Shown: positions 19,466 to 61,480 of the stretch, piece by piece
Position numbering within the stretch: the first letter of the stretch is position 1
Layout of the letters: each line of letters starts with the position of its first letter
Source of the DNA: Candidatus Wolfebacteria bacterium RIFOXYD12_FULL_48_21
Lineage (GTDB): Bacteria; Patescibacteriota; Minisyncoccia; UBA6257; UBA9933
Reading direction: 5' to 3'
Assembly (NCBI GenBank): GCA_001793945.1
Contig: MGIW01000003.1
Coordinates: forward strand, 65,630-129,629
Length of the DNA stretch: 64,000 nt
Notes under the pieces: generated by a model
Databases searched by the model: none
Seen by the model: the letters and a program-made list of their open reading frames with translations, nothing else
What the model was told of the DNA's origin: nothing
Made by a program: the position numbers and the translations under genes

Positions 19466-21280
19466 TTACTTTATTCCACTTGTTTGCAACCCCCTCACCT
19501 GCCTTGTTATTACTGCGCCCGTAAAGTCATCCACGGCGGTCAATGCGAAGTCTTTTGTAACATCGATCGTTCCGGTTTGCGTGATGTTCGGCGTTATTTC
19601 TATCTGAAAGGTTGCTTCCGTCGGCGATCCGATCACTCCCTTCGTCGCGACCACTTTGTCGATTGTCCATGCTATTTCGCCTGTGCGGTCATTGAAGACC
19701 GGCACCGATCCGTTACTCCCCTTTGCATTCCCCGTCCATGTGACGCCCGGTTGCAAGGAGCTCAATATCTTTATATCGCGCATGTCGGTGGCGTAGTTTT
19801 TAAGCGTCAGCGTTATGGTATATTTCGACGCCCTGTTCGCCTGCGGCAACGGGGTGCCCGGCAACCGCTCAACTTTCGCAAACAGCTCTATATTCCCGCC
19901 CACCTTTACCTCGCTTTCTGCAAAGCCTACCGTTCTGTCACTCGCTACCGCATAGGGAACCGTAGGCGAATTGATCTCTCCCGCAACCCGCAACAGATAG
20001 TTTTTATCAAAGAGCCTTTTGATCGGGTAGGCTTGCTTTGTCTGTATGCTAAAATCCACGCTTCCTTCCGCACCCGGAGCGATCAACTTCAACTCCGGCA
20101 CGGCCGAAGCGTTCCATGTCAAAACATTGGTGATCGAATTGAACGAACCCCTGCTTCGCACCGAAGGCATGTCGAACATTTCCCCGCGCAATTTCACGAC
20201 CACGATCGCATCGCTCAAACCAACATCCGTATTGTTTTTATATTTCAGCACATAAGAAATCGTATCATCTGTCTTTGCCACATACGCCGGATCGTTGTTC
20301 GCAACGATCTCAAGGCTGAGCGGAGATGCGGCAATGCCGATATTTGCCGTCTTTTCGTTGATGACATATTCGCGTCCGTTGATCATAACGACCACCTGAC
20401 TCTTTAACTCAAAGAACTCCTGGCTCGCTCCCTCGAATATGCCTTTGACCAATATCTCTTTTTCTTCCTGCGGTTTCAATTGCCCCACGACCCATGTTGC
20501 ATCGCCAATGTCCGCCTTTACCGAAGCGCTTTTGATTGCAACCTTCGGCGGAATGATCAGCCTGATCTGCGCATTCGAAAAATCTACGGTGGAAATATTG
20601 CGATACCGCATACCGGCGTCAAAGTTCTCCGTACTGAACACATTTTGTGGAGTCGTGAAATCGAGCGAAATGGCCGGCTGCCCGACACGCACCTCCAATG
20701 TTTCTTCACGCTCGAACCGTGTGTTTATCTTCTGCGGTAAATAGGAAAAGTTCACATCCAGCTTTTTTGTCGACTGTTCATCCTTTACCACTACCACCGA
20801 ATAGGTCCGTTCTATCATGTCGCCGGCGCTAAGGTCGCCCACCGAATCTTCAATCGCTTGCCGTTCCGTGCCGGCGTCCATGGCTATGATGCCGTCGGGC
20901 AATGTTACAAATACCCTTCCGTCGCGGAGCGTTACCTGTGATTTGTTTTCAATGGTGACCGTTATATCGAACGGTTGGGCGATCAAAATAGCGTCGACCG
21001 TTGCCGCATCGAACACAAGGTCCTTTGTTTTATAAAACGCAGAAATGTAATAGTAGGCAACGCTTCCCACGATCGCAATCGCCAGCAATGAACCGATCAC
21101 GACCCACTTTGCCGTGCCCTTCTTTGCTTGCCCCGCTGGCTTGCCGGCTTCATCTTCCGCAGCCCAATCGCTCGCCACACGCGGTCGTTCTTTTTTTACT
21201 TGTATCGCTTCTGCCGGATGCTCGGCGTCTTCTTTCCTATCGAGACCGTATAATTTTTTTTCAAGTTCTTCTAATGACAT
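19466..21280 (-). CDS. Membrane-anchored extracellular repeat protein (DUF11/Ig-like repeats), function unknown
   Basis: Cytoplasmic N-terminus, a single TM helix (WVVIGSLLAIAIVGSVAYYYI), then ~500 aa of beta-rich repeated segments. Confidence 0.4.
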   Translation of the reverse strand: MSLEELEKKLYGLDRKEDAEHPAEAIQVKKERPRVASDWAAEDEAGKPAGQAKKGTAKWVVIGSLLAIAIVGSVAYYYISAFYKTKDLVFDAATVDAILIAQPFDITVTIENKSQVTLRDGRVFVTLPDGIIAMDAGTERQAIEDSVGDLSAGDMIERTYSVVVVKDEQSTKKLDVNFSYLPQKINTRFEREETLEVRVGQPAISLDFTTPQNVFSTENFDAGMRYRNISTVDFSNAQIRLIIPPKVAIKSASVKADIGDATWVVGQLKPQEEKEILVKGIFEGASQEFFELKSQVVVMINGREYVINEKTANIGIAASPLSLEIVANNDPAYVAKTDDTISYVLKYKNNTDVGLSDAIVVVKLRGEMFDMPSVRSRGSFNSITNVLTWNASAVPELKLIAPGAEGSVDFSIQTKQAYPIKRLFDKNYLLRVAGEINSPTVPYAVASDRTVGFAESEVKVGGNIELFAKVERLPGTPLPQANRASKYTITLTLKNYATDMRDIKILSSLQPGVTWTGNAKGSNGSVPVFNDRTGEIAWTIDKVVATKGVIGSPTEATFQIEITPNITQTGTIDVTKDFALTAVDDFTGAVITRQVRGLQTSGIK

Positions 21281-32216: not shown

Positions 32217-33098
32217 TTACCTAACCCTGCAACAAGTCGCAATGCAAGTCGGACCGGGGCAATTAACCCTATCCATCATGGACAGGTAATAACCGTTACT
32301 ACAAGTTGCCCTTGATGAGGCGTCCACATTATAACAGCTGCCCCATGTATCCGTTATGGCCCCCATCTGTGTTATCGTCTTGCAACTTGATCCATTTATA
32401 TCGCAATAATTTCCGGAATTGATTTGCGTTGCCTTTGCGGTTCCGTTAACATCGAGTCTATACCCCGGCGTCGCCGTACCAATACCAACATTTCCACCCA
32501 TAGCATTGATGGCCAATGGTCGCGTTGAAAAACTTGTGCCTTGTTGAGCTGACTGTATGTAGGCTATGTCATTTGTTGCATCGGCTCCAAGTAGTAATTC
32601 GCTATCTGTTGACGCAGAGTATAGCGCTATGCCGGCAGTGTTTTCTGTACTATATGTCGAGGCTTTGTTTATTTGCAACATTCCTTGTGTAGGATTAGTT
32701 GTCCCGATACCGACATTGCCGGCTTTCATATAAAAATCGCTGTTCGTTCCGGTGCGGCTGATCAAAAAATCAATACCATCCTTGTTGGACAAATAATATT
32801 TTTCCGTTCCCGCATTTGCAAAAACCAAAGAAAGGTCCCCGCTTCCGCCGCCATCGGCATCGTTAAAAATTATTTTTGGTGCCAAAGATGCAGAAACATG
32901 CAGAATGCCTTGCGGGGCCGCCGTGCCAATGCCGATATTACCACCGCTTGCCTTGAGCGTTCCCGAACCTAACGGCGGATTGCTTGTAGGGCTCGTCCAC
33001 GCAAGGCCCTCGCGGGCTACCAATGCAATGCCAACACTCATCGTAGCTATTGCGAACAATTGCAAACCGAGTTTTATGTTGGTGTTCATTGAATACAA
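32217..33098 (-). CDS. Secreted protein with phage tail-fibre-like GNVGIGT repeats and Cys-rich C-terminus
   Basis: Signal peptide. Repeats [16 protein letters not shown] / [17 protein letters not shown] / [17 protein letters not shown]-terminus [21 protein letters not shown] is shared with the adjacent pilin-like paralog. Confidence 0.45.
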
Positions 33099-33124
33099 TA
33101 TACCATATTTTAGTATGTTATTCC

Positions 33125-33250
33125 TGCGAAATCAGCCCGTCGGCTGACGGATATATCGGCTCTATAGATTCCTGCCGGAGTTTATCCCGTACTTGATACG
33201 GGACCCGCGTTCGGAATGACAAACGGGGCGGGAATGACTCCGTAAAGTCC
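33125..33250. repeat. MITE-like repeat cluster
   Basis: CGTCGGCTGACGG ... CGGAATGACAAACGGGGCGGGAATGAC. Confidence 0.5.
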
Positions 33251-33406
33251 GCCATTGGCGGGCTGCGGGGCAAGCAAAGAGAAGATTAAAGATAATAAAA
33301 AAACTGTGAGTGCAAATTCAAAAATCCTTTCTATGAATATACCAAAACCGCATGCAAATTGCATGCGGCCCCACATCTTCATTGACGCCATAGATTGGCG
33401 AGGTCA

Positions 33407-34480
33407 TCAATAACAATACGCTGCTATTCCTACATGGGTATAATAGCAAGCGACATTGTACGCACCGTTATAGTTATATGTCGTTATGCAAGATTTTCCA
33501 ACTGATACACATATTGCGTCTCCTGTCGTGTTCGCACCAGCGAAACTTACTGCAGTGATTGTACTCCCCCCCATCGCCGCTATCGTTTTGCAGTTTGAGC
33601 CGCTATCATCGCAATAATTTCCGGAATTGACCTGCGTTGCCTTTGCGATTCCGTTTACATCCAATTTCGCCCCGGGATTTGTCGTCCCAATCCCCACATT
33701 CCCCGCTACATTGGAATACATATTCGTAGACGTGGCGAGCCACAACGAAGAACCGAGGTCGCCCCATGTGCCATTTGCCTTGCCGCGGAAGGACTTGCTG
33801 GTGGAATTATAATAGATGGAGCCGTCTATGCCGGATGGGTCGCTGGAAATGACGCCCAGGTTAAGGAGGTTAGAGAGGGATATGTTCTTCCATCGCTTGG
33901 TTCCGGAAAAACCGACCTCGTAGCTATTGTCCGCATTGGGGAGCAGGTCGGAGTCAAAGGTAGCGGCGGAAACACGGGAAATGCCTGAACGCAATGCACG
34001 GGATATTTTACTGGGGCCGGTGGCGGTATTGGAAAACTGCAGGTCGACCGCAACTTGGTCGTGGCCGCCGGGGAACTCTACGCGCTTGAAAAATGCGGTG
34101 TCGACGATGACTTTACTGGTGGTGAGGTCGGTGGATGCGGATGCGCAGTTCTGCTTTTGAAATTCATCTGGGCCGGAAGACATCTTTAAGACACCATCTT
34201 CTACAAAGATGCAGGTTGGGTCAAGCGCGGGATCATTCATGCGCAGCTTGAGCGTGCCGGTTGTAGTGGTAGCCGTTTCTATGGCCGAAGATTCACGGAC
34301 CAAACGGGAAACCGTTTCCATGGCGAACTGCAGTTGACTGGAAACTTCATCGCCCGATATTTCCTGCGTGGAAATGCGGACCACATTGGTAAGAATGCCA
34401 AACAACGATCCACCGATGATGGCGAAGATGCCGAGGTACAACAATGTTTCCAACAAAGAGAAGCCGCGGGTGCGTTTCAT
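33407..34480 (-). CDS. Type IV pilin-like protein (class III signal peptide) with large C-terminal tail-fibre-repeat / Cys-rich domain
   Basis: N-terminus MKRTRGFSLLETLLYLGIFAIIGG resembles a prepilin leader and hydrophobic helix (G-F-S-L-L-E). C-terminal [45 protein letters not shown] is paralogous to 32217..33098. Confidence 0.55.
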   Translation of the reverse strand: MKRTRGFSLLETLLYLGIFAIIGGSLFGILTNVVRISTQEISGDEVSSQLQFAMETVSRLVRESSAIETATTTTGTLKLRMNDPALDPTCIFVEDGVLKMSSGPDEFQKQNCASASTDLTTSKVIVDTAFFKRVEFPGGHDQVAVDLQFSNTATGPSKISRALRSGISRVSAATFDSDLLPNADNSYEVGFSGTKRWKNISLSNLLNLGVISSDPSGIDGSIYYNSTSKSFRGKANGTWGDLGSSLWLATSTNMYSNVAGNVGIGTTNPGAKLDVNGIAKATQVNSGNYCDDSGSNCKTIAAMGGSTITAVSFAGANTTGDAICVSVGKSCITTYNYNGAYNVACYYTHVGIAAYCY

Positions 34481-34551
34481 GGGGTTATTATAGCATATTG
34501 GGGGCGGGGAGGTATAAGGTATAGGATATACGGTATACGGTATGGGAGGGA

Positions 34552-34995
34552 GTGTCATCCCGAGTGCAATGCAGCGAAGCGGAATGAAATCGAGGGAGCT
34601 GCAGTAAAAAACAGATTCCTCGACAAGCTCGGAATGACATACAAACTACTGCAGATTTCTCGACTGCGCGGAGTACCCTGCCTACCGGCAGGCAGGCGCT
34701 CCGCTCAGAATGACAATTCGCGGAGGGGCGGCAATGCAAAACACTGGATTCCGGATCAAGTCCGGAATGACAAGGCGGGAAAATAACCGATGACTGATAA
34801 CCGATGACTAATAACAGGATGCCTCGGGCGAACCACAGGGCAAGTAATGCGGGGAGGGGTGTCATCCCGTGCCACGACACGGGATCCAGAGTTTTCTGCA
34901 GTAGCGACGCTTAAGCATATAGAATCTGGATACCGGCCGGAGTTTATCCTGATCCGCCAGCCGGCGGACGAATGAGCCGGTATGACAATGCAAAT
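34552..34995. repeat. Large composite MITE-like repeat cluster (~440 bp, at least 5 units)
   Basis: TGTCATCCCGAGTGCAATGCAGCGAAGCGGAATGAAATCGAGGGAGCTG, CTCGGAATGACAT, CTCAGAATGACAA, GTCCGGAATGACAA, TGTCATCCCGTGCCACGACACGGGATCCAG, GCCGGTATGACAA. Confidence 0.6.
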
Positions 34996-35014
34996 GTAAC
35001 GACGTCCGACATCG

Positions 35015-36713: not shown

Positions 36714-36811
36714 CCGATAACCTAAAACCAATAACCCATAACAAAAATGCCGCGTAATGCGGTATTTCATATTCCTTGCTCTCTTTAAAATCTCCTTGTG
36801 TTGATTTTGTC

Positions 36812-36882
36812 ATTCCCGCGGAGGCGGGAATCTATTATAATACTGGATCCCCGCCTCCGCGAGGATGACACAGGGGCAATGT
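36812..36882. repeat. MITE-like repeat
   Basis: TGTCATTCCCGCGGAGGCGGGAATC...GGATCCCCGCCTCCGCGAGGATGACA. Confidence 0.65.
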
Positions 36883-36899
36883 GTTACTTAGAGATGAGT

Positions 36900-37052
36900 T
36901 TATTCCCCACTATACAATGCCAATGCTTCGTCAAGATTTTCCAAGGCTTCCTTTTTTGTCTTTCCAAAGCTGGAAATATCAACATTAAGACACTGAGCAA
37001 CATAATATTTCCCCTCTTTCCATATTGCTATTTTTAGATCTATTTTTCGCAT
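36900..37052 (-). CDS. HicB-like (UPF0150) antitoxin, orphan
   Basis: 50-aa ORF below the ORF-track cutoff: MRKIDLKIAIWKEGKYYVAQCLNVDISSFGKTKKEALENLDEALALYSGE. It matches the HicB N-terminal fold pattern (YyyAxCpelpGcxsqGxTxEEALeNxkEAlxLY). No hicA partner is adjacent and a MITE lies immediately downstream. Confidence 0.5.
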   Translation of the reverse strand: MRKIDLKIAIWKEGKYYVAQCLNVDISSFGKTKKEALENLDEALALYSGE

Positions 37053-49980: not shown

Positions 49981-50051
49981 CGCCGTCAATTTTTTAGATA
50001 GTGTGGTTTTATTCCACCTTTAGCGTCGGTTGCGTTACCATTGCCCGACGG
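49981..50051 (-). repeat. Cassette 3' trailer module, copy 4
   Basis: CGCCGTCAATTTTTTAGATAGTGTGGTTTTATTCCACCTTTAGCGTCGGTTGCGTTACCATTGCCCGACGG. Confidence 0.6.
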
Positions 50052-50149
50052 GAACTTTGCTCAAAATCTTGGGCAAAATCCCGATTCCTCTCCCCTCTCG
50101 TGGCCATGTTGGGTCGTGGCCAGCGAATAAGGGGTCAACCTCCTTTTCC

Positions 50150-50290
50150 CCGATATTTTATCTGTCGGCCTCGGGTGGCTGTTATTTTTCCAAGGTGCTT
50201 TGCAAGGATGCTTTCCTTTCCTTCATCCTTACGCCCCCACAATAACTTTTTTATGTCAACCAGTCAATAATTTTGCCAAATTCTTTTTTT
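50150..50290 (-). repeat. Degenerate copy of the cassette-2 upstream region (RBS hairpin plus promoter-like segment), no intact ORF
   Basis: CTTCATCCTTACGCCCCCACAATAAC and TGTCAACCAGTCAATAATTTTGCC parallel CTTCCATCCTTACACCCTTACAATACC and TGTGTCAACTATTCCGTCAAAC at 46997-47070. Confidence 0.4.
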
Positions 50291-50481
50291 CGCTTTATGT
50301 ATAACCTCATTTATATAGCATAAATACTATATAAATTGACTAACTTTAGTAAAAATAAAAAATGACCCTTTCGGCGTCATAATGTTCCCATGCGTAATTT
50401 TATCGATCTTTCACTCAAAATAGCGCCCGTATGCACAGCTCATTACCAAGCGCTATCCTCTACCCGCCCCCTCTTTTATGG

Positions 50482-51201
50482 CTACTTCCCTAAAAATACC
50501 TTTCCTAAAATATCGCTTTTTGCTATTACATCCGCATCGCCACCAACAGCAATCTTTCCTTTGTCCAAAACATACGCCGTTTGGGCGATATCCAAGATCG
50601 ATCGTATGTTATGCTCCACCACTATGATTGCCGTGTGTTTAACTTCGTTGATCTCGCGGATCTTTTCAAATACTTCTTTTACGATCTTTGGCGCAAGCCC
50701 GAGTGATGGCTCATCGAGCAATAACACCTTGGGGTCGATCATCAATCCACGCGCGAGCGCCACCATCTGCTGCTCCCCTCCGGAAAGCATCCCCGATTTC
50801 ATATTCCGCTTGCGTTTCAATACAGGGAACAGTTCCATTACATCGTGCTTGCGCGCATGTCGCTCGTCTTTATCCTTTACAATTATCCCGCCAATGTCGA
50901 GATTTTCCTCGACTGTCAGGCTTTGAAACACGCGACGGCCTTGCGGCACAAATGCGACTCCCTTGCGCGCCATCTTGTGTGGAACCGGAATAACCTTCTC
51001 GCCTCTCCATATAATATGGCCCGCGTGCAATGGCGTGATGCCAAAGATGGCCTTCAGTACCGTCGATTTCCCCGCGCCGTTTGGGCCCATGAGCGCAACA
51101 AGCTCACCCTCATGAATGTCGATATCAACGCCATCAAGGGCATGCACGCCGCCATAATGAACGGACACATTCTTTAGTTGCAGTAGGGGTTCGTTTTGCA
51201 T
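50482..51201 (-). CDS. livF: Branched-chain amino acid ABC transporter ATP-binding protein (LivF-like)
   Basis: Walker A GPNGAGKST, signature LSGGEQQMVALARGL, Walker B LLLDEPS. Start assumed at MQNEPLL. Confidence 0.8.
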   Translation of the reverse strand: MQNEPLLQLKNVSVHYGGVHALDGVDIDIHEGELVALMGPNGAGKSTVLKAIFGITPLHAGHIIWRGEKVIPVPHKMARKGVAFVPQGRRVFQSLTVEENLDIGGIIVKDKDERHARKHDVMELFPVLKRKRNMKSGMLSGGEQQMVALARGLMIDPKVLLLDEPSLGLAPKIVKEVFEKIREINEVKHTAIIVVEHNIRSILDIAQTAYVLDKGKIAVGGDADVIAKSDILGKVFLGK

Positions 51202-51208
51202 ATCTATT

Positions 51209-51305
51209 GACAAAAACTGGTAATCATCTATACTAATAGTACATTATGCTCCAGCAATGGAGTTCCGAGAAACCCCTTCGAGAGAAGGGGTTTCGTTTTA
51301 TACGA
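51209..51305 (+). ncRNA. Candidate small RNA: promoter TTGACA-16/17-TATACT followed ~40 nt later by an intrinsic terminator
   Basis: TTGACAaaaactggtaatcatcTATACT ... GAAACCCCTTCGAGAGAAGGGGTTTCGTTTTAT. Divergent from livF. Could alternatively encode a ~32-aa peptide (MLQQWSSEKPLREKGFRFIRAPLASLLYPHNR). Confidence 0.3.
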
Positions 51306-51749
51306 GCTCCTTTAGCTTCACTTTTATACCCCCATAATCGGTAGTATTCAATTTACCTATTTTCCTAATAAATCGCTTATTACTGATCGCTCGCAGTTGT
51401 GACAGAATTATTACATTCTGTTCTCCTTGGGTATTAGTAAATGGGAAATAATATTTACCTTCCTTCATTTTCGTTTATTTCTACTCCGATATTTTGCCCT
51501 AAACTTGCCCACCAAATTTGCCTTTCCCGAGGAAAACTTCTTATATCTGAAGCATGTATATGTATTTTTGACTTAGTCTAATGCGCAAATACTTCGACAA
51601 GTTCTTTTGTAATTTTTATACTCATAAAATAAATCGACTCTTCGCCTTTATTCTTTCTCAATCTTACCAAATTCCATTCTCTTTATAAACTGATTGGATT
51701 TTGTTAACCTTTATAAAATGGCTTCGGCTCTCCCTTGCGTGAGTAGGGG

Positions 51750-51790
51750 TAACAAAAAACAGCCCTCTACGAAGGGCCGTTTTTTATGGT
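51750..51790 (-). terminator. Intrinsic terminator after substrate-binding protein gene
   Basis: Minus strand AAAAAACGGCCCTTCGTAGAGGGCTGTTTTTTGTT. Confidence 0.7.
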
Positions 51791-51805
51791 TTGAACATAG
51801 TGCGG

Positions 51806-52954
51806 TTATTTTCCTACAAATACCGGCATCATATTTTCCAGTCTAAACAATCGCACAAGGATCCCGCTCACTCGTCCATCTTCTTTCATTGTGAGGTTTC
51901 CCGTCACGCCTTTGAAGTTTTCGACATTCTTCATTGCGGTTATCTTCTGATTCAACTGTCCCTTTTTCGTGCTTGCGGTCACTTTCGGCAGCACCTCGGT
52001 GATCAATACCTTGGCCGAGTCGTATGCCTGGTCGCTGGCGACGAACACAAAGGGGGTCCTGCCATACTTCGCCTTAAAGTCATTGTGAAACTTTACAGCA
52101 ACCTGGTTCCCTTCGATTGGAGCATAGAACGAGAAGTGGATTCCATCAATCGCCTTGCCCGCAGCCGCCTGAATGGACGGGGTCGTGGCAACGGTAGGAA
52201 TCGTGAGATAATTCTTTCCTATGTTCAAGTTCTTTGCCTCCTTGATCGCGATTCCGATTTCGTCATAGCCAAGGAATACGATCGCATCCTTATCCTTGAA
52301 CTTCAGTAGCGATGTTTTGAAGTCGGTCGTTCCCGGCTTATAGCTCTCTACCTGCACTGAAGCCGCATTTCCTATTCTAACTACGAATTCATCGGAAACA
52401 GACTGCATGAAGTTATCGACGGTGGAATGCAAGATTCCGATATTCTTATAACCCTGTTCCTTTGCATAATCAGCGATTACATCGGCTAAGTCATTTGTTT
52501 CCTTGGCGATGCAAAATATATTTTCCGGAAGATTGGCGAGTGCCTGATCACAATCCAACGAGTCTACTATCAATACATTGTCTCGCTGCGCCCGTTCGGC
52601 CAAGGCCATGACGCCGCCATAGGTGGACATGATGATCGTATCGACACCATCGATGGTTACCATCTTTTCATATGCACTGATCGCTTTTGCCGTATCGTAT
52701 TGATCATCCTCCACTACGAGCTTTATTTGTCGGCCGTTTATGCCTCCGCTTGCGTTTGCTTCATCAACCGCGAGTTGTATCGATTTGGAAGCTTCTTCTC
52801 CCAATATCGCCACATCTCCCGTTAGTGGGCCGATATAGCCGAGCATATACGCCCCTTCCACCTGTGCGCCGTTACCCCATTTAAACAGATATCCGGCAGC
52901 TATTACCGCTATGACCACTGCAATTCCGATAATGCTATTTTTTTTGTCATTCAT
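51806..52954 (-). CDS. ABC transporter substrate-binding protein (LivJ/branched-chain amino acid binding family, type I periplasmic binding fold)
   Basis: Signal-anchor N-terminus and family-wide similarity to Leu/Ile/Val-binding proteins. Terminator at 51750-51790. Confidence 0.75.
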   Translation of the reverse strand: MNDKKNSIIGIAVVIAVIAAGYLFKWGNGAQVEGAYMLGYIGPLTGDVAILGEEASKSIQLAVDEANASGGINGRQIKLVVEDDQYDTAKAISAYEKMVTIDGVDTIIMSTYGGVMALAERAQRDNVLIVDSLDCDQALANLPENIFCIAKETNDLADVIADYAKEQGYKNIGILHSTVDNFMQSVSDEFVVRIGNAASVQVESYKPGTTDFKTSLLKFKDKDAIVFLGYDEIGIAIKEAKNLNIGKNYLTIPTVATTPSIQAAAGKAIDGIHFSFYAPIEGNQVAVKFHNDFKAKYGRTPFVFVASDQAYDSAKVLITEVLPKVTASTKKGQLNQKITAMKNVENFKGVTGNLTMKEDGRVSGILVRLFRLENMMPVFVGK

Positions 52955-53170
52955 GTAATTTTTATTATTTTATTATTTTTCTCACGCGCGTTCACTTGTT
53001 AATCATGATAACAACATTATGCGGTTATATTGTCAAACAGTCAACAAATGTATTTCTAATTTTTCTTATCCAACCCCCCACTCTCCTTTAATATGCCTTT
53101 AATATTGACTTTTTTTGCTGTTTTGCTACTATTAAAATAGTGACGGAATTATCGTTATTTATATATACTT

Positions 53171-53905
53171 ATGGTCATACAACAACTCCAAGACGCCGGT
53201 CTAACAAAAAAAGAGGCTCAAATCTACCTTGCCCTATTAGAGTTGGGGGAGGCAAATATCGCTCAGATAACAAAGAAATCGGGCATTAAACGATCGACTG
53301 TCTATGAAATGCTCGATATTCTGAAGAAAATGGGCCTTGCAAGCCAGGGTCGCCTTAAAAAACGGACCGTTTTTTATGCAGAAAGCCCAAAAAAGATCCC
53401 CGAGGCGCTGGATGCAAAAAAACGCGCCATAGAAGAGGCAATGCCCGAATTGCTGTCCATGATGAATCTATTGGATAAAAAGCCCAAGATAAAATATTTT
53501 GACGGCATTGCGGGTTTACGGGAAGTATTTGAAGACACCCTAAGATATCCGGACCAGGAAATACTCACCCTATTCCCCTACCCATACATAAACCTGGGTG
53601 AAGATTATTTTCAGGGACATTATTTGCCGGAACGAGTAAAGCGGAAGATATGGTCGCGCGCCATTATCCCCGATACTCCGGAGAATAGGGTCTTTGCCAA
53701 GTATCTCCAAGAAAATGCCATCACAACGACGCGATTCTCCTCCGATGCAGCCTTTAAACTATTCGACATCGAGATCAAGATCTATGGCGGAAATAAGCTC
53801 GGGATCATTTCCTATAAAGAAGACCTCGGGTTGATCATAGAGAGCACAAAGGTATCCGAAGGCCTTAGGGCCATATTTGAAACAATGTGGAACTTACTAA
53901 AATAA
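53171..53905 (+). CDS. TrmB-family transcriptional regulator, paralog 2
   Basis: AGLTKKEAQIYLALLELGEANIAQITKKSGIKRSTVYEMLDIL is colinear with paralog 1. Terminator at 53905-53945. Confidence 0.7.
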   Translation: MVIQQLQDAGLTKKEAQIYLALLELGEANIAQITKKSGIKRSTVYEMLDILKKMGLASQGRLKKRTVFYAESPKKIPEALDAKKRAIEEAMPELLSMMNLLDKKPKIKYFDGIAGLREVFEDTLRYPDQEILTLFPYPYINLGEDYFQGHYLPERVKRKIWSRAIIPDTPENRVFAKYLQENAITTTRFSSDAAFKLFDIEIKIYGGNKLGIISYKEDLGLIIESTKVSEGLRAIFETMWNLLK

Positions 53906-53945
53906 GCCAGCCAAAAAATCCGCCGAAGCGGATTTTTTTAGTTAT
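53905..53945. terminator. Bidirectional terminator between trmB paralog 2 and SBP gene
   Basis: AAAAAATCCGCCGAAGCGGATTTTTTTAG. Confidence 0.7.
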
Positions 53946-53951
53946 TACTTA

Positions 53952-55094
53952 TTACATACCGATGGTCTGTCCATTCTTTATGACCTTCACTGTAAACCCA
54001 ATGTCTGAATTACCACTCTGATCAAGAGAATATGTTCCCATAAATCCGTTGTAATTCTTCACATTCGTCGTCAGCCAATCACGCACCTTTGCGCTGTCGT
54101 CTCCAACTGTTGCGATTGCCGTTGCGAGCAGCTGCATATCGTCATAGGTAGCCGCACTGTGGAATGGCACCACTGGATCTTTGCCGTACTTTGTCTTATA
54201 TGCGGCGAAGAAATCCCTAAGCCCTGCATTGTTTGCGTTGTATGACGGATCTGCGAAATGGATCCCCTCGAACGATCCGAGTATCTTTTTTACATCGGCG
54301 TTCAAAACCAGTAGGAAATCGGAGAATACCGGGGCCTTTACACCGATAGTATTCATCTGTTTGATTAAGTTTCCTCCACTGATACCCGTCTGTGACGCCA
54401 CCAGTATCGCATCCAGATTCTCCGCCTTAATCTTGCTCGCGATTGTCCTGAAGTCTGTTGTGTTTGGCTGGAATTCTTCTGCAATGACCACGGTCATGCC
54501 CAGCTCCTGCGCTTTCTGCTCAAAACTCTTTTTAATGTCTATTGTGTATTCGGTCGTTTCAGCAATCACACCCACCTTCTTATATCCTTTCTTTGCCATT
54601 GCTTCTGCAATGTTGCGCCCTGCCAAAAGATCTGAGTTGGCTGTTCTAAAGATATACTCACCCGCTTCATCTACATTTCTTCCGCCGGTGACCGGCGTCA
54701 TCAGAACTACCTTGTTCTGATTGGCGATCGGCGCTGCCGCAATCGTGCCATTACTACACATACCTCCAATGATATACTTTACCTTGTCAGTATTTACGAG
54801 CTTCGATACGGCCGACAATCCAGTCTTGCTGTCGCATTTTGCGTCCTCGACGACCAATTGAATCTGTCGTCCATTGATGCCTCCCTTTGCGTTAATCTCA
54901 TCTGCTGCTAATTGAGCAGTGTTTGCAATATTTTCACCAAGTGCCGCGAGATCACCGCTCATAAATGTTGAAACTCCGATCTTGATCGGTCCAGTTTCTA
55001 CCGATATATCCTTTTTATTTGCCAATATATATCCTCCCAATATCACCGCTATCACGGCAACAATACCGAAAACCAATTTTGTATTTTTTGTCAT
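53952..55094 (-). CDS. ABC transporter substrate-binding protein (LivJ-like), paralog
   Basis: Same fold and family as 51806..52954. Signal anchor MTKNTKLVFGIVAVIAVILGGYILA. Confidence 0.75.
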   Translation of the reverse strand: MTKNTKLVFGIVAVIAVILGGYILANKKDISVETGPIKIGVSTFMSGDLAALGENIANTAQLAADEINAKGGINGRQIQLVVEDAKCDSKTGLSAVSKLVNTDKVKYIIGGMCSNGTIAAAPIANQNKVVLMTPVTGGRNVDEAGEYIFRTANSDLLAGRNIAEAMAKKGYKKVGVIAETTEYTIDIKKSFEQKAQELGMTVVIAEEFQPNTTDFRTIASKIKAENLDAILVASQTGISGGNLIKQMNTIGVKAPVFSDFLLVLNADVKKILGSFEGIHFADPSYNANNAGLRDFFAAYKTKYGKDPVVPFHSAATYDDMQLLATAIATVGDDSAKVRDWLTTNVKNYNGFMGTYSLDQSGNSDIGFTVKVIKNGQTIGM

Positions 55095-55276
55095 GTTTAT
55101 AATTATTTCCTCTTAATTAATAATTTTAGCCTGGCGTAAGGTAACGCAATTAAGATAAATCCTTACTTTTATCTTATTACTCGACTATTATGCCATTATA
55201 TGACATAATAACAATAGATTTCTTGTATTTTTTTAAATTATGTCCTACATTGATACTATAATTATAAAATTTAAAA

Positions 55277-56299
55277 ATGAATGTAACAGAACTTGACAAA
55301 AAAATACTTTTTCAACTTGATATGGATGGGCGCGCCAGCTTCTCTGAAATAGCCCGTTCTATTGGCTCCACCCCTCAGGTCGTCAAGTATCATTACGAAC
55401 AATTGATGGGGCGTGGCATTATCAAGCACTTTTGGGCATACATCGACTACGACAAGGCCGATTATTCATTTTTCTGGGGCTACTGGTTCAAATTTGCCGG
55501 CCTTACCAAGGTGATCGAGGATGAGATGTATACGCGCCTGAACGCAGACCCCAATGTTCCAATCATCATGCGCGCAGACGGATATGCGGATGTCCAACTT
55601 GCATTCATCAGTAAAGACATCTTCAACCACAACGAAATGTTGCAGAATTTTTTTACCCGTTACGGACAATATGTGGTTTCTACCGATATTTTTGTTGGCC
55701 TCGGATTTATAAAATTCCCCAGAATGTATTTAGTAGGGGAGGAAAACAAACCGCAAACAAGTGCTCTGTCTGGTGGGACCACTAAAAAGATCCGCCTCAC
55801 CGAAATCGATCGGAAAATGATGTCGCTCCTTCTTATAGACGGCAGAATGGAATTCACAAAAATTGCTAATATTTTAGGCGTGTCCGTCGGGTTGGTACAT
55901 AAACGCTATGCGAAACTCAGGGATACGGGCGTCATCACCAAAATATCCTTCACGATCGACTACCCCAAAATAGGCCTTCTCCTCTACCGCGTCTGCTTCA
56001 AGATCACGCAGTTCGATCACAAGCGCATTGATGACCTCTATGAGTTTTGCTCCCTCCATCCTAATATCATCGATTACGTAAAGGGCATGGGTAGTTGGGA
56101 GCTGCTTCTGGATATCGAGATAGAAGATCGTGCGTCCCTTCGCAACCTCATCCGCGAGCTAAAAACTAAATTCAAGGATATCTTTCAGCGGGTGGAGATA
56201 AACGAGATATACCAGATGGATAAATTCACGCAGATGGCTATGGAATATCCGGAGATGGCCAAATATGCCCGCCCTTCTTCTTTGATCATGTACGATTAA
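55277..56299 (+). CDS. Tandem (duplicated) Lrp/AsnC-family transcriptional regulator
   Basis: Two successive HTH_AsnC-like segments (LDKKILFQLDMDGRASFSEIARSIG... and IDRKMMSLLLIDGRMEFTKIANILG...), each followed by a RAM-like domain. 340 aa. Confidence 0.55.
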   Translation: MNVTELDKKILFQLDMDGRASFSEIARSIGSTPQVVKYHYEQLMGRGIIKHFWAYIDYDKADYSFFWGYWFKFAGLTKVIEDEMYTRLNADPNVPIIMRADGYADVQLAFISKDIFNHNEMLQNFFTRYGQYVVSTDIFVGLGFIKFPRMYLVGEENKPQTSALSGGTTKKIRLTEIDRKMMSLLLIDGRMEFTKIANILGVSVGLVHKRYAKLRDTGVITKISFTIDYPKIGLLLYRVCFKITQFDHKRIDDLYEFCSLHPNIIDYVKGMGSWELLLDIEIEDRASLRNLIRELKTKFKDIFQRVEINEIYQMDKFTQMAMEYPEMAKYARPSSLIMYD

Positions 56300-56319
56300 T
56301 CTCTGCTTTCTATCGTATA

Positions 56320-56355
56320 AAAAATGCCCCGCCGTATTGGCGGGGCGCATTACCT
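56320..56355. terminator. Bidirectional terminator between AsnC-like gene and hypothetical gene
   Basis: AAAAAATGCCCCGCCGTATTGGCGGGGCGCATT. Confidence 0.65.
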
Positions 56356-56467
56356 CCTTTTTTTGCTTATTCCTTATTCCATTTTCGTGCTTCGCGCTCT
56401 ACTCCCCCCAAATACGCCTCGATGACTTCCCGTCTTACAAACACTTCTTCTGGCTTGTCTTCGCCCC

Positions 56468-57418
56468 TTACTTCTCTTCCAAGTGCTCCTTTAACAGCAT
56501 TTCCATCGGACAGAGCCCGTTAAGACTTTCATGGGGAAAATAATTCCACGCATCGTTCAGTAGTCGAAAACCCTCTTCGTCGAAAAATCCTGTCTTGTCG
56601 AGTAATGCGTTGAAATTATGGTGCGCATCATCCTCTTCATAAATCATATGCTCTATGTCTTCGAATTTCATCGACACGCTCCTTTCTTTTAGTAGCCGCG
56701 AAATAGCTTCCCGCAACAGCTTCTGTTGTGGAAGCACATTTGTCTCATGGAAGTAGCTTTTATATGCTTCCCTGCCGGCAGCATGCGATTTCTTACTACC
56801 CCTTCCTTTTACCGATAGCATACCTTTTTCTTCCCGTATAAATTCCTCAAATATATTCTCATGCAGTTCGCCTCGGAGCAAGTGGTCATTTAGTAATACC
56901 TGTAAACTCTTATACACGCTCGGGGGTAGGCTGGCAATATATTTGTATCTCGAATACTCTTTGCGATAATTCCAGTCGAGGAGCTGTGACACCTTGTATG
57001 CAAATTCACAAAACCGCTTCCTATCGCGTTCTATTTCTTCATCCGATATATTCTTCATCCATGAACTTCTCGTTATGTGCAGAGTCATATCGAGCCAATC
57101 AACTGCGTTGAGAAGCGCCTGCCGTATCTTTCCCGATGGATTCTGAATTTGCCTAATTACGAACTCCTCACATTCCTTGAAATAATCACTCCCAAGATAT
57201 ATAAACGCCCACTTTACTGTATTGATAAAATATGTCTGATGATCAATATCTTTTATTTGATCAAATGTTTTCATCTCGCCGATAAAAGCCCATAGCTCTT
57301 TCTTGAGTGCGTTTCTATCAAGCGTGCGGTCATTGGCTACTTTTGCAACCTGCTTTTGCGCTTCTTTTACCGCTGCCTTGTCGCCGGTTTTTATTATCTT
57401 TATTAATTGGGAAATCAT
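56468..57418 (-). CDS. Hypothetical 316-aa protein adjacent to AbiE module
   Basis: AT-rich, helical, no recognisable motifs. Terminator at 56320-56355. Confidence 0.35.
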   Translation of the reverse strand: MISQLIKIIKTGDKAAVKEAQKQVAKVANDRTLDRNALKKELWAFIGEMKTFDQIKDIDHQTYFINTVKWAFIYLGSDYFKECEEFVIRQIQNPSGKIRQALLNAVDWLDMTLHITRSSWMKNISDEEIERDRKRFCEFAYKVSQLLDWNYRKEYSRYKYIASLPPSVYKSLQVLLNDHLLRGELHENIFEEFIREEKGMLSVKGRGSKKSHAAGREAYKSYFHETNVLPQQKLLREAISRLLKERSVSMKFEDIEHMIYEEDDAHHNFNALLDKTGFFDEEGFRLLNDAWNYFPHESLNGLCPMEMLLKEHLEEK

Positions 57419-57442
57419 GATTCAATTCTTGCAATTGAGTAT

Positions 57443-58153
57443 TTATTTTAGCGAAGAGATATAATTTTTTACCATGAATATGGTATCGGTTTTTAGGCTT
57501 TTTTTAACCCATCTTTTTTCTTTCTCGGAGAGTAGCTCGCCAAGACCGCGTAAAACTTGGCTATCTTTTATCTGTTCTATGAACACCACGCATTCACCGA
57601 GATACTCCTTTACTGTTTTTTCTGTTCTACTTTGTATCACCATTGCATCAATATCCCAATGCTGTTTCGCGAAAAAGTGAATGTCGTATACATCCCGCAT
57701 GGCCGTTTCCGTCCGAGAAGTAAGCGCTGCCAGCTTGCTCGCAAATAAATACTCTTTTTTTGCAACGAGCATCGAAATTCCTATATACTCCTTGATTTCG
57801 TAGTACTTCCTAATATTCTCGACGAGTATTCTTGTGTTTATCTCCACTTTTATATTATGATCGGCATCCCCATATGAAAGCACTACAAGCACGGTATATC
57901 TTTTAATCCATTGATCTTTTATTATCCCATATTTGCTTAAGATGCCAATAATCTTTTTATAAACAACCTCTTGATTCTCTTGGCTTGTTTCCAACAGGTC
58001 AAAATCGAGATCCACCGAAAACCTTGGGAGGTTATAGAAGAAGTAAGCGCATGTTCCTCCTTTAAACCCCAGTAACGGGGCAATGGAGGTGTCTTCGTAG
58101 ATATCTTTTAATATCTGCCCCATGATCAGTTGATGTTTTTCGTTATTGAGCAT
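57443..58153 (-). CDS. AbiEii/AbiGii-family nucleotidyltransferase toxin (type IV TA / abortive infection)
   Basis: LGFKGGTCAYFFYNLPRFSVDLDFDLLE matches the AbiEii signature (KGGTAL...RFSEDIDF). Confidence 0.75.
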   Translation of the reverse strand: MLNNEKHQLIMGQILKDIYEDTSIAPLLGFKGGTCAYFFYNLPRFSVDLDFDLLETSQENQEVVYKKIIGILSKYGIIKDQWIKRYTVLVVLSYGDADHNIKVEINTRILVENIRKYYEIKEYIGISMLVAKKEYLFASKLAALTSRTETAMRDVYDIHFFAKQHWDIDAMVIQSRTEKTVKEYLGECVVFIEQIKDSQVLRGLGELLSEKEKRWVKKSLKTDTIFMVKNYISSLK

Positions 58154-58715
58154 GAGTGTCGTAATATTTTTTGAGGCGATTTTCGAGCTGTTTGTTTTTA
58201 TATATCCCTACCATCTCAAAACATTTATCCCAATCCAATGGCCTTAAATTATCAAAATAGTAGCCCGGAAAGAGGTATATCATGTCTAAAAATGCGCGCT
58301 CAGGCGTTGCGATACTATAATTATCTTTATTTCTAATACCTGTCGCGTTATAGAGTACGATATCTTTTAATTTTCTAAATGTAACCGTTCGCCCGTCAAT
58401 TGTTACCGTCTTTGCCATCCTACTCGCCACGAATACTGTTTTGTAATACTGAAATATCATACCCGCCTCAAGCAGGGCCGTTTCGAAGCTTATATATGCC
58501 GGCGTATATATGCTCGTTGCGAGCTCCCTTGGCTCATACTGCACATCTTTTGCGAATATGCCTCTCGTAAGACTTAGTAGCGACCCTTGCTTTACATAAT
58601 ATGCTATCTTTGCTTTTAAGTTATTTTTATTCGTTTCTCCCCACGCTAAAGCCATGTCATTCGTCGTTAAAATGGTTTTTTTTAATTTATATACACTTGT
58701 GAGCGAACTATCCAT
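58143..58715 (-). CDS. AbiEi-family antitoxin / transcriptional regulator
   Basis: N-terminal wHTH with RGIF motif (LLSLTRGIFAKD). Overlaps the AbiEii start (ATGA-type coupling). Confidence 0.65.
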   Translation of the reverse strand: MDSSLTSVYKLKKTILTTNDMALAWGETNKNNLKAKIAYYVKQGSLLSLTRGIFAKDVQYEPRELATSIYTPAYISFETALLEAGMIFQYYKTVFVASRMAKTVTIDGRTVTFRKLKDIVLYNATGIRNKDNYSIATPERAFLDMIYLFPGYYFDNLRPLDWDKCFEMVGIYKNKQLENRLKKYYDTHAQ

Positions 58716-58832
58716 ATAATATACCTCTGAAGTAAGCCTTTATCTTACTTCCAGTATAAATTATTGCTATTTACTTGTCAAATGCATTCCTCATTCCTTA
58801 TTGCTTACTCCCTTTTGCCTATTACCCACTCC

Positions 58833-59591
58833 CTATTCCCCCAAATATGCCTCGATAACTTCCCGTTTCGCGAGGACATGGTCCGGCTTCCCTTCGGCGA
58901 GTAATTTTCCGCTATCCATGACGATCAGGTGGTCGCACAGTTCGCGAATCAAATTCATATTATGTTCGATCAGAATGACCGTTTTGCCTGCTTCCTTCAA
59001 CTCTTTAATTACCGACACAATGACCTTGATCATTTCCGGAAACAATCCCGCAAATGGCTCGTCGAACAAAAAGATACTCGCATCCTGCCCAATATGGTCG
59101 GAATGCGTCATCGCCAGCACCCGAGCTATCTCTAATAGCTTTCTTTGCCCGTAGGAGAGGTTGTGAGCCAGTTGGCTTCGCTTTTCCCATAACCCTACGC
59201 GCGTCAATACCGTTTCCACCTTTTTCATATGCCCCGCGTTATGCCGCTCGAACAGCGAACCCCACACGCTGCGCTCAGTCAACACAACCAGAATGTTATC
59301 CAGCACGGTCATTTGCTCGAAAAGTCGCACCTCCTGAAATGTTCGCGTGATTCCATGGTAGGCGGTGTCAGATGCCCGCAACCCTTTCATCTCCCGTTCT
59401 CCGCCGATGACCATCACTCCTGCGGTCGGCGGAAGCATGCCACTCAGCACATTGACCAAGGTCGTTTTGCCGGAACCGTTCGGCCCCACAACTCCCGTTA
59501 CCTTGCCTTGCTCGAATGCAACCGAAAGACCGTCGATGGCAGCGACACCGCTAAAATGCTTATGTAGTTCTTTTGTTCGTATTGCGTCCAT
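58833..59591 (-). CDS. livG: Branched-chain amino acid ABC transporter ATP-binding protein (LivG-like)
   Basis: Walker A GPNGSGKTT, signature LSYGQRKLLEIARVL, Walker B FLFDEPFAG. Confidence 0.8.
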   Translation of the reverse strand: MDAIRTKELHKHFSGVAAIDGLSVAFEQGKVTGVVGPNGSGKTTLVNVLSGMLPPTAGVMVIGGEREMKGLRASDTAYHGITRTFQEVRLFEQMTVLDNILVVLTERSVWGSLFERHNAGHMKKVETVLTRVGLWEKRSQLAHNLSYGQRKLLEIARVLAMTHSDHIGQDASIFLFDEPFAGLFPEMIKVIVSVIKELKEAGKTVILIEHNMNLIRELCDHLIVMDSGKLLAEGKPDHVLAKREVIEAYLGE

Positions 59592-59714
59592 ATAAATTAG
59601 TAGTTAGTAGATGGCAGTAAGTAATAAGCAAATAGGGATTCTGTTTTTTATTACTATATCCACTATCCTTTTCCCTTTCCCTCTTCCTTTTTTCTTATTT
59701 TTTTTCCTTATTTC

Positions 59715-60584
59715 TTATTTCACCTCGTACTCCCCAATAAACCCTTTGGGTCTATAGAGCATCAGTAGCACCAGTATCGCTCCATAAATGATCTGACGCA
59801 TCTGCGCCGCTATATCCGTGGGCAATCCTACGAATCGCAGTATTTCGGGCAAAAGAATAAGAAACAATGCGCCTGCCAGCGTTCCGCGGAGGCTCCCCAA
59901 CCCGCCCATGATGACAATTGCCAGAATAAATATGGATTCGTTAAGCGAAAATGATGACGGGTCGATATAGGTGATATATGAAGCGAACAACGACCCGGCA
60001 ATCGACGCCATGGCGGCTCCTATTACGAATATCGCCAGTTTGAAATAGGCAACTTTGTACCCGAACACCTCCAGCGCCTTTTCATCCTCGCGGATCGCTT
60101 TAAGCACCCGCCCAAATGACGAGTTTGCAATGAAGTGCGCAAGCGCATACACAGCGCCGAACAATACAACGGCTAACGCAAGAAATGTTTCATTCGCCGA
60201 GAATGTGAACCCGAACAAACTCGGTCGGTCGATCCCGGGAATACCCAACGGACCCTTGGTCACACTTTCCCAATTGAGAAAAATACTGAATGCGATCACA
60301 TTAAATCCAAACGACGCAAGCGCATAGTAATCATCCTTGAATTTACTCAGCACCATACCCGCCAACAAGCTCACGATCGCCGTGATTACTATCCCCAGTA
60401 TGACCGAGGCAAAAAAGCCGAGCCCGTAGTGGGCCAGCGCGACCGCGGTCGCGTATGCGCCGATGCCATAAAAGGCGGCATGGGTCACCGACAGCAATCC
60501 CGCATATCCGACGATCAAATTCAACCCGACGCCAAGAATAGCGTAAATAAAAAATAGTATTGCTATGTGAATAAGATATGGCAT
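59715..60584 (-). CDS. livM: Branched-chain amino acid ABC transporter permease (LivM-like)
   Basis: 8-9 TM helices. Family-typical GYAGLLS and C-terminal permease motifs. Confidence 0.75.
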   Translation of the reverse strand: MPYLIHIAILFFIYAILGVGLNLIVGYAGLLSVTHAAFYGIGAYATAVALAHYGLGFFASVILGIVITAIVSLLAGMVLSKFKDDYYALASFGFNVIAFSIFLNWESVTKGPLGIPGIDRPSLFGFTFSANETFLALAVVLFGAVYALAHFIANSSFGRVLKAIREDEKALEVFGYKVAYFKLAIFVIGAAMASIAGSLFASYITYIDPSSFSLNESIFILAIVIMGGLGSLRGTLAGALFLILLPEILRFVGLPTDIAAQMRQIIYGAILVLLMLYRPKGFIGEYEVK

Positions 60585-60586
60585 GG

Positions 60587-61453
60587 CTATTTTTTAAATA
60601 TACCTTGAGGGCGAAATAAGAGAAAGATTATTAAAATAATAAATGCGATCGCGTCCTTCCATTCGCCCGAAAACTGCCATACACCGAAGTTCTCCGCGAA
60701 CCCAAGCAGGAATGCTCCGGCAAATGCCCCGTGCATCGTGCCGACGCCGCCGATGATCGCCGCGATTACGCCCTTGAGCAGCAAGTGCATACCCATGGTC
60801 GGCTCCAACCCCGTGTCGAATCCAACCAAAATACCCGATAGCCCCGCGATAGCCGACCCTATGAAAAATACCCATCCGATGATCTTGTCCGTATGAATGC
60901 CAACCATCTTTGAGACTTCTTCATCGTCACTCACCGCGTTGACCGCCCGGCCAAACATCGTCTTTTTTAACATAAGCGTCAGCAATGCGAGGACTACAAT
61001 TCCACAAATCAGAATGATAGCCTGTGTCTGCGTAATGATACCCCCCGCTATAGTGTAAACACGGCTCTCTGTCGAATTATTGGCAAGTGTCTGAAATTGG
61101 CTCGTGAACAAGATTGCGATGATCGCCTGAATGACCGTCAAGAGACCAAGTGAGGCGACCAGAAACACCATTTGCGACGCCTTGCGCAGGCGCAGCTGCC
61201 GAAATATAGCCTTATCCAAAATATATCCGACAAACCCCGCAAACACTATCGCCAATACGGCACTTGCGTATACATTCCATCCGAGTTCCTTGTACAGGAA
61301 GAACATGGCATATCCGCCGACGACTGTCAGCGCACCGTGGGCCAAGTTAAAAAACTTTGTCGTGCGATAGATCAGGTTAAAGCCCAACGCGATCAATGCG
61401 TAAATCGCTCCTGCGATGATACTGTTTGCGATTATCTGCGGAATAATACCCAT
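60587..61453 (-). CDS. livH: Branched-chain amino acid ABC transporter permease (LivH-like)
   Basis: 8 TM helices. Immediately upstream of livM with a 2-nt gap. Confidence 0.75.
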   Translation of the reverse strand: MGIIPQIIANSIIAGAIYALIALGFNLIYRTTKFFNLAHGALTVVGGYAMFFLYKELGWNVYASAVLAIVFAGFVGYILDKAIFRQLRLRKASQMVFLVASLGLLTVIQAIIAILFTSQFQTLANNSTESRVYTIAGGIITQTQAIILICGIVVLALLTLMLKKTMFGRAVNAVSDDEEVSKMVGIHTDKIIGWVFFIGSAIAGLSGILVGFDTGLEPTMGMHLLLKGVIAAIIGGVGTMHGAFAGAFLLGFAENFGVWQFSGEWKDAIAFIILIIFLLFRPQGIFKK

Positions 61454-61480
61454 TAGGGTTAATTATACTTTATTTCTTTC

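Follow-up and report, generated by a model that had tools for sequence, protein, structure and literature searches.

The 64,000-nucleotide stretch of Candidatus Wolfebacteria bacterium RIFOXYD12_FULL_48_21 analyzed here (MGIW01000003.1, positions 65,630-129,629; hereafter the window) carries on its minus strand two adjacent genes, B (33407-34480) and A (32217-33089), of which the first probably encodes a minor type IV pilin of the modular kind, displaying a trimeric receptor-binding fiber at the pilus tip, and the second its secreted fiber partner. Modular pilins, including those joining a pilin to an S74 domain, and the MAT fibers of Bdellovibrio are both known; what is new is that the two designs are combined in B. 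In the literature we found no paper that brings modular pilins and MAT fibers together or that describes pilin-borne MAT-like fibers in Patescibacteria. The means by which these ultrasmall bacteria locate their hosts and stay attached to them are an open question, with the majority of lineages outside the Saccharibacteria being uncultured.

Both open reading frames (ORFs) were confirmed by an ORF scan at the coordinates given in a preliminary description of this DNA; they lie on the minus strand, arranged tail to head with A directly downstream of B. The frame of B spans 33407-34558, and its start at ATG 34480 (MKRTRGFSLLETL...), which agrees with all close homologs and with the ENA gene call, gives a protein of 357 residues. 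For A, the frame previously delimited as 32217-33098 stands and its start is corrected: the TTG at 33098 is a mechanical ORF start, and translation from the ATG at 33089 yields 290 residues. The product of gene A is 100% identical to the Wolfebacteria RIFOXYD12_FULL_48_21 protein A2524_03290.

The N-terminal part of B has the features of a type IV pilin. Residues 1-30 (34391-34480, minus strand, as are all features of both genes) comprise a class III (prepilin) signal peptide, MKRTRG followed by FSLLE, and the hydrophobic α1N helix. This leader and helix had been recognized in the preliminary description, and the G/F-x-x-x-E register, examined in homologs as the point on which that proposal could fail, is kept. 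In an alignment of 87 homologs, from which all register, column, and domain counts for the B family are taken, position -1 is occupied by G in 67 and by A in 18 sequences, position +1 by F in 82, and position +5 by E in 86 of the 86 sequences having a residue there. The Pfam N_methyl family matches 72/87 members and, in B itself, lies barely above the cut-off (21.3 versus 21.2 bits), which makes the conserved register the stronger evidence for a pilin. The leader MKRTRG is presumably cleaved by PilD. The AlphaFold2 (AF2) monomer model of B, built with the family alignment, shows a pilin "lollipop" in residues 1-170 (33971-34480), with a long helix (residues 9-63) followed by a β-sheet and a predicted local distance difference test (pLDDT) score mostly above 90 over residues 11-170. 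Two of the elements by which type IV pilins are recognized, namely the class III signal peptide and an α1N helix with a globular head, are found in B, the fold being a predicted one. The pilin part matched EpsJ, GspJ, XcpW, and S. sanguinis PilB in Foldseek only at E values of at least 0.28, which are not significant, and we ascribe these weak matches to the crystal structures, which are without α1N. All NCBIfam matches were below the cut-off (given second) and covered the N-terminal helix alone: ComGE (21.8 bits; 49), ComGF (15.6; 80), and GspJ (11.4; 64.85). Past the leader, B matches no Pfam domain and would therefore be missed by domain-based catalogs. As in modular pilins, the pilin module of B is followed by a second part, a fiber tail of 187 residues, which in relatives ends in S74, C1q, or LamG.

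The repeat carried by both proteins, GNVGIGTxxPxxxL, is the MAT capping loop. The profile of the A family identified Bdellovibrio Bd2133 (8ond) in the PDB with an E value of 6e-26, and that of the B family with 2.3e-24; further MAT structures, namely 8ojn/8onb/8onc (Bd3182), 8oml (Bd1334), 8ol4/8onf (Bd2439), and 8on4, were matched at 2.1e-13 to 1.6e-06 by the A-family and at 8.1e-10 to 2.7e-05 by the B-family profile, followed by the MyRF S74 stalk (7dc3; 0.00027 and 0.037, respectively). When the AF2 model of A, itself weak (pLDDT 64.7), was compared with the PDB by Foldseek, the top 14 matches were all Bdellovibrio MAT fibers (best Bd2133, E 5e-6, probability 1.00), and phage T4 gp34 and the Mu tail fiber came after them. 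MAT fibers have been described as intertwined, obligate trimeric β-helices related to the S74 proteins of phages K1F and T5, with capping loops on the β-helix edges and with tips formed either by an S74 self-cleaving chaperone, which enforces trimer formation, or by diverse adhesive domains, for which "tip swapping" was proposed (Caulton et al., 2024; PMC10769870). The repeats are thus not those of an unrelated β-helix; they belong to a trimeric β-helix kin to the K1F and T5 S74 fibers. Homology to the MAT capping loop and β-helix is found in A and in B, in the latter through one loop and family membership. Neither protein contains the β-rich N-terminal domain of about 130 residues found in MATs: A has about 20 residues before its first loop, and B has the pilin module. 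We therefore class them as MAT-like fibers on other carriers and not within the strict Bdellovibrio family. Peptidase_S74 (PF13884) matched neither A nor B. The capping-loop motif is widespread: a search with the neck and tip of A matched 11,111 cluster representatives, for the most part giant proteins (median, 13 loops), and was dominated by these capping-loop matches. Matches of B to designed "Pizza" propellers (E 0.0016-0.35) looked compositional and were rejected.

In the preliminary description the repeats were held to be characteristic of phage tail fibers, and kinship with fibers is borne out; the nearest characterized relatives are, however, cellular fibers of a predatory bacterium, and the genes do not appear to be borne by a phage. 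That A and B are tail-fiber genes of a phage or prophage, encoding virion receptor-binding proteins that lie in the chromosome, could be argued from the PHROGs tail fiber match of A (E 1.4e-8), the S74 chaperone of relatives, and the presence of T4 gp34 and the Mu fiber among the structural matches, as well as from an rve integrase beside a paralog of B described below. We consider this origin extremely unlikely, because the pair is embedded in housekeeping genes, with trmD upstream, rpsO, an NYN-domain gene, and the PNPase gene downstream, and gatCA also nearby; its GC content equals that of the flanks; no capsid, portal, terminase, or baseplate gene was found in the neighborhood and no phage gene in the annotation of the window; and the arrangement polA-pilin-eno is a conserved chromosomal locus in several Wolfebacteria. 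Moreover, neither a prepilin leader nor a Sec signal peptide is expected on virion proteins, and the B model gave no significant match to viral structures in Foldseek. Compared with phage S74 tailspikes and fibers (K1F endosialidase, T5 pb1) and with the T4 gp34 and Mu fibers, the β-helical stalk, presumably trimeric in A and B as well, the capping loop that precedes S74, and the exchange of receptor-binding tips by recombination are the same, whereas A and B lie outside a virion gene set, carry export signals, and have no S74.

The C-terminal part of B can be divided into four segments. The pilin module runs into a junction (residues 169-197, 33890-33976; RVSAATFDSDLLP...G......W) that holds the only invariant columns of the 87 sequences, namely A172, F175, D176, P181, G190, and W197, and that is predicted to be disordered (pLDDT below 50 in the monomer model). 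It is followed by a small β domain (residues 200-257, 33710-33883; YYN..FRG..G.W), modeled with a pLDDT of 66-90 and present in the family consensus, which is constant in close relatives and missing from some short members. The third segment (residues 258-299, 33584-33709) consists of the single GNVGIGT loop of B, at residue 260, and the neck (ATQVNSGNYCDDSGSNCKTIAAMG), and is the module common to A (BLASTP; direct repeat D1). The Cys-containing tip (residues 300-357, 33410-33583), also with a pLDDT below 50, was recognized as a variable cassette by comparison with the paralog; it is shared with P0002 and differs from those of the paralog P0003 and of others. A homolog search with only the neck and tip of B (residues 259-357) returned no matches, probably owing to a word-index limit.

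Gene A encodes a MAT-like fiber without S74 behind a signal peptide. Its constant head (residues 1-56, 32922-33089) contains a Sec-type signal peptide, which is probably cleaved after GLA and of which residues 3-26 are modeled as a helix, a conserved peptide, and the first of three GN[VI]GIGT motifs (residues 50, 124, and 199). The head is 77-80% identical to those of the Wolfebacteria relatives P0122-P0125, compared with 12-23% for the remainder of the protein. The second capping loop (residues 123-138, 32676-32723) was located by a motif scan and by alignment to MAT loops, and the third, with the neck (residues 198-240, 32370-32498), forms the module common to B. The protein ends, as read from its sequence, in a Cys-rich tip (residues 241-290, 32220-32369), which, among the best 150 of the 11,111 cluster representatives, was covered only by the cluster of A itself.

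The three repeat copies of A, its C-terminal tail, and the Cys motif NSGNYCDxxGSxCKTI of both proteins are all present as first reported. The two genes had also been called a paralogous pair, which holds for one module and not for their length. Residues 197-263 of A and 258-324 of B (67 residues) are 58% identical (BLASTP E 1e-19), with 136 nucleotides at 76% identity at the DNA level, and comprise one GNVGIGT loop and the neck LDVNGxAKATQxNSGNYCDxxGSxCKTIxxMG; no relationship exists between their N-terminal parts or between their Cys-rich ends. In a six-frame translation of the window, GN[VI]GIG occurs four times, three times in A and once in B. We infer that A is a Sec-exported version of the kind of fiber borne by B, on a different carrier. 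The neck YCDxxGxNC links fiber to tip on both carriers, being found in five pilin-type and four signal-peptide-type proteins, one of which comes from a Nanoarchaeota assembly. This last protein (P0158, 403 residues, from a metagenome-assembled genome) has capping loops, the neck YCDENGANCK, and a Cys tip, and its sequence suggests either that ultrasmall symbionts among bacteria and archaea have fiber cassettes in common or that its contig was binned wrongly. A heterotrimer of A and B formed through the shared neck was considered and rejected, as the tips differ and the partners at other loci have no common necks.

B belongs to a family with 469 matches in the protein database and 128 loci among 185,579 species genomes. 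Of the 80 loci kept, nearly all bear Patescibacteria-type labels of metagenome-assembled genomes and three bear other or generic labels; those recorded include Wolfe-, Colwell-, Harrison-, Lipton-, Jorgensen-, and Brennerbacteria and Paceibacterota. Looser relatives of A occur in Bacteroidota, Verrucomicrobiota, and DPANN archaea. The members of the B family share one plan, in which a constant pilin module and the invariant junction are followed by a tail, between 23 and 1466 residues long and bearing 0-14 capping loops, and by a variable end. Peptidase_S74 forms this end in 16/87 members, with SDxxxK intact in all six S74-ending members examined, C1q, LamG, and Gly_rich_2 were each found in single cases, and many ends are knobs of 40-50 residues with one disulfide. 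These data bear on whether B might be the major, filament-forming pilin, whose fiber tails would decorate the whole pilus. Although the canonical leader with E5 is compatible with such a role and no other pilin gene occurs in the window, protein lengths from about 190 to 1665 residues and interchangeable tails are not expected of a filament-forming subunit, and obligate trimeric tails would not suit the subunit spacing. In addition, the major pilins of the Patescibacteria studied are small and the large ones minor (PMC11623550), and modular pilins have been modeled as located at the tip (Raynaud et al., 2021; PMC8179133), which makes a major pilin very unlikely.

The mosaic nature of the family is visible within the genome itself. 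The paralog P0003, a second pilin of the same genome, is encoded outside the window, about 20 kb from its start (as the overlap of loci L085 and L002 shows), and its DNA is 89.9% identical to that of B over nucleotides 1-809, up to a break at the capping loop. At this point P0003 has 413 extra nucleotides, corresponding to two more repeats; the two sequences match again over the neck (82% identity) and then diverge in their tips. Between the carriers of the two genes, the rates of nonsynonymous (dN) and synonymous (dS) substitution are 0.033 and 0.338, giving a dN/dS of 0.10, and for the necks the ratio is 0.14-0.21. As dN/dS is 0.10-0.21 throughout the alignable parts, diversity appears to arise by cassette replacement on a constrained carrier. 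Diversifying point selection, which the preliminary description had raised for comparison of the paralogs, is rejected by the same values, and a diversity-generating retroelement by the lack of a reverse transcriptase in the annotated neighborhood. Two tandem signal-peptide mini-fiber genes (178 and 180 residues) lie near P0003, between the R3H gene and polA (L002, 6181-7383); they have a nearly identical head and neck region and different Cys-rich tips, which, judged by sequence, is a clear instance of local tip swapping. An rve-family integrase of an insertion sequence element is found between P0003 and the enolase gene (L002, 11546-12622) and is absent from the syntenic Wolfebacteria loci L005 and L007.

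The order of the two genes recurs elsewhere. A signal-peptide fiber gene is located within 2.3 kb downstream and on the same strand at 9/59 loci having at least 3 kb of downstream sequence, compared with 0/63 upstream among the loci having upstream sequence. In other Wolfebacteria the order is polA, pilin-fiber gene, eno, and signal-peptide fiber gene, to which the B-then-A order of the window conforms. At four loci (L078, L079, L081, and L083) a short pilin of 265-332 residues, which has a single capping loop and a disulfide knob, precedes a giant signal-peptide fiber gene, which starts 1-2.2 kb downstream and encodes 847-1735 residues with up to 17 capping loops.

We propose the following course of events as the probable function of the pair. 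A prepilin peptidase would remove MKRTRG from B, and the hydrophobic helix would anchor the protein in the membrane and allow its entry into a type IV pilus. The C-terminal part, made up of the junction, the small β domain, one capping loop, the disulfide neck, and the Cys-containing knob, would form a short MAT-type fiber, in which three copies of B may intertwine into a trimeric β-helix and sit as a homotrimer at the pilus tip, in the manner of CofB; the knob, facing the host cell, would be the end that binds the receptor. A, encoded directly downstream, would be exported separately by means of its Sec signal peptide, with its short constant head. With the constant carriers kept by purifying selection, fiber length and tip would change through swapping of cassettes, with the capping loop and the neck as joints, and could thus supply the symbiont with a changeable set of host-recognition proteins.

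The main rival of a tip-located pilin is a membrane-anchored surface fiber that never polymerizes, in which the pilin helix would serve, after cleavage of the leader, only as an anchor or a short pseudopilus stub, and three anchors, trimerized through the fiber, would project it through the thin envelope. Such an anchor would agree with the solitary position of the gene far from pilus machinery, with the existence of short family members of just 230-280 residues, and with the Bdellovibrio MATs, which are described as cell-surface fibers anchored by an N-terminal domain (Caulton et al., 2024; PMC10769870), and it would avoid the mismatch between a fiber of C3 symmetry and a helical filament. 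We nevertheless regard it as unlikely: the whole globular domain of the pilin, beyond the helix, is under strong purifying selection (dN/dS 0.10), E5, which is typical of subunits entering a filament, is kept in 86/86 sequences, and CofB provides an example of a trimeric pilin located on a pilus.

Several results weigh against a receptor-binding pilus-tip fiber. PilD, PilC, PilM, and PilT were not found in the window and about 10 kb past either end, and the pilin genes of the B family are usually solitary and outside pilus operons. The conserved E5 suits any assembled pilin and is not specific for a position at the tip. In Foldseek, the B model gave nothing significant against the PDB (best E 0.08), and for want of a significant fold match B is assigned to no named minor-pilin class. 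As single sequences, A and B were also not significant against the PDB in phmmer (E 0.06 for A), so that the evidence for the link to MAT fibers consists of the family profiles, the motif, and the fold match of A, and for B of the family profile and a single capping loop. Monomer models are poor in the fiber parts (pLDDT below 50 for residues 282-357 of B), as would be expected if the fiber folds only as a trimer, yet this proves nothing. Finally, the proposal accounts for no role of the invariant junction at residues 169-197.

Some of these features could be accommodated by a two-part tip device, which we consider quite improbable and which is drawn by analogy with CofB. The C-terminal domains of CofB homotrimerize as the tip and initiator complex and hold the secreted, co-encoded CofJ by its N-terminal peptide (PMC6048534). 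In the same way, a trimer of B might cap a retractile type IV pilus, and A might dock on it by means of its constant N-terminal peptide, as CofJ does on CofB, or as PilY1 does on minor pilins by β-strand complementation, and the junction of B (SAATFDSDLLP...G...W) might be where it docks. Docking of this kind, which we hold to be a doubtful prospect, would account for the invariant junction, for the retention of A after export, and for the downstream position of the fiber gene. The synteny of pilin and signal-peptide fiber genes is suggestive in this respect, whereas that A binds to B is purely conjectural, by analogy. The type IVb proteins CofB/TcpB resemble B in having a pilin domain followed by β-rich C-terminal domains and in forming a homotrimer at the tip, as would B, and their co-encoded secreted partners CofJ/TcpF, bound through an N-terminal peptide, are analogous to the B-then-A order and the constant peptide of A. 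In contrast, CofB contains β-repeat and H-type lectin domains instead of a MAT β-helix, and no sequence similarity was detected.

In comparison with Bdellovibrio MATs (Bd2133, Bd3182, Bd1334, and Bd2439), as described by Caulton et al. (2024; PMC10769870), the capping loop and β-helix repeat unit, the division into S74 and non-S74 tips, the C1q/TNF-like and small β-knob tips, and the constant carrier with swappable tips are the same, and so is the setting of a small bacterium that has to recognize the surface of another bacterium. In contrast, MATs are about 1000 residues long, with a Sec signal peptide and a conserved β-rich anchoring domain of about 130 residues, whereas the carrier is here a pilin module (B) or a signal peptide with about 25 residues (A), the fibers are very short, with 1-3 capping loops, and they come from a Patescibacterium. 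Neither the YCDxxGxNC neck nor the Cys-rich tips appear among the tip types that the sections of that report used here name for MATs.

With modular pilins, exemplified by S. sanguinis PilB/PilC (Raynaud et al., 2021; PMC8179133), B shares the combination of a pilin with a C-terminal functional module, the predicted location at the tip, and the likewise predicted role in adhesion, and the earlier view of it as a pilin carrying an adhesin tip is supported and fits this published concept. The pilin-S74 architecture (IPR012902-IPR030392), there represented by 29 proteins and the sixth most common, is also that of 16/87 B-family members. In contrast, the module of PilB is a monomeric vWA domain, and pilin-S74 was read in that study as a "predicted peptidase" and not as a trimeric fiber with a self-cleaving chaperone (PMC8179133). 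Dataset S1 of the same report contains four proteins in which a pilin is followed by a YadA-like head (IPR008640) and S74 (PMC8179133), which is another trimeric adhesin module on a pilin. A link to the Wolfebacteria example in its Fig. 8 as an S74 architecture is unproven, the supplement giving counts only (PMC8179133).

Type IV pili are reported to be nearly universal in the phylum Patescibacteria, and two large minor pilins of the Saccharibacteria strain TM7x, PilX1 and PilX2, have been proposed as possible tip proteins, with PilX2 as a candidate adhesin for host binding (PMC11623550). They resemble B in being minor pilins of Patescibacteria that are large and carry accessory domains at the C-terminus; unlike B, they contain a β-jelly roll and a β-propeller, have non-canonical signal peptides, and are located in pilus loci (PMC11623550). 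A different, chaperone-usher-like pilus of the candidate phyla radiation, with a co-localized "tail fibre-like protein", was described in a 2026 preprint.

If the fibers are receptor-binding proteins, their mosaic tips would offer a handle on host specificity that can be read from sequence, as is the case for phage tail fibers. Proteins cataloged as "pilin + S74 peptidase" may be re-read as self-chaperoned trimeric fibers and not as enzymes, and the MAT concept of Bdellovibrio would be extended to a second bacterial group living on other cells. A structural question is thereby raised, namely how a C3 fiber is mounted on a helical pilus. Were the two-part device true, the pilus would be a harpoon with exchangeable phage-like receptor-binding fibers, and host range in Patescibacteria of the Paceibacteria class could be read from the tips. 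The occurrence of the same neck in the Nanoarchaeota protein is a hint that these cassettes are also in use among DPANN archaea.

The sole gene of pilus machinery in the window encodes a PilB-type assembly ATPase (3525-5249, plus strand), which had already been noted as pilB at 3525 and is matched by T2SSE with an E value of 6.5e-117. It is an orphan: the genes adjoining it are one with a KH domain and, at 5336-5955 on the minus strand, a HepT/MNT toxin-antitoxin pair, none of them for pili. About 4 kb past the window end there is a gene for a competence channel of the ComEC type (L086, 4177-5616), and its proximity is relevant to an alternative role of Patescibacterial type IV pili, DNA uptake.

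The spacer between B and A (33099-33406, no strand) contains hairpin repeats of the GGAATGACA type and a promoter-like site (33321-33292, minus strand), which is weak evidence, the promoter and terminator scan being uninformative. The gaps at 33100-33400, 34560-35010, and also about 36800-36900 are packed with short hairpin repeats (GATTCC...GGAATGACA type), which generate spurious ORFs, such as 33182-33391 and 34488-34880 (both minus strand). A strict pattern search revealed no further copies elsewhere in the window; the repeats may be a genome-wide REP-like element.

Two other regions of the window deserve mention. An ORF of 604 residues between proS and recO (19466-21280, minus strand) has no Pfam family. 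From about 50000 to 63700 the GC content drops from about 0.50 to 0.41-0.44, and this region, which may represent a nutrient-uptake island that was acquired or is expanding, carries an amplified array of five Peripla_BP_6 binding proteins, each with a TrmB regulator, together with genes for ABC transporters and for an AbiEii toxin.

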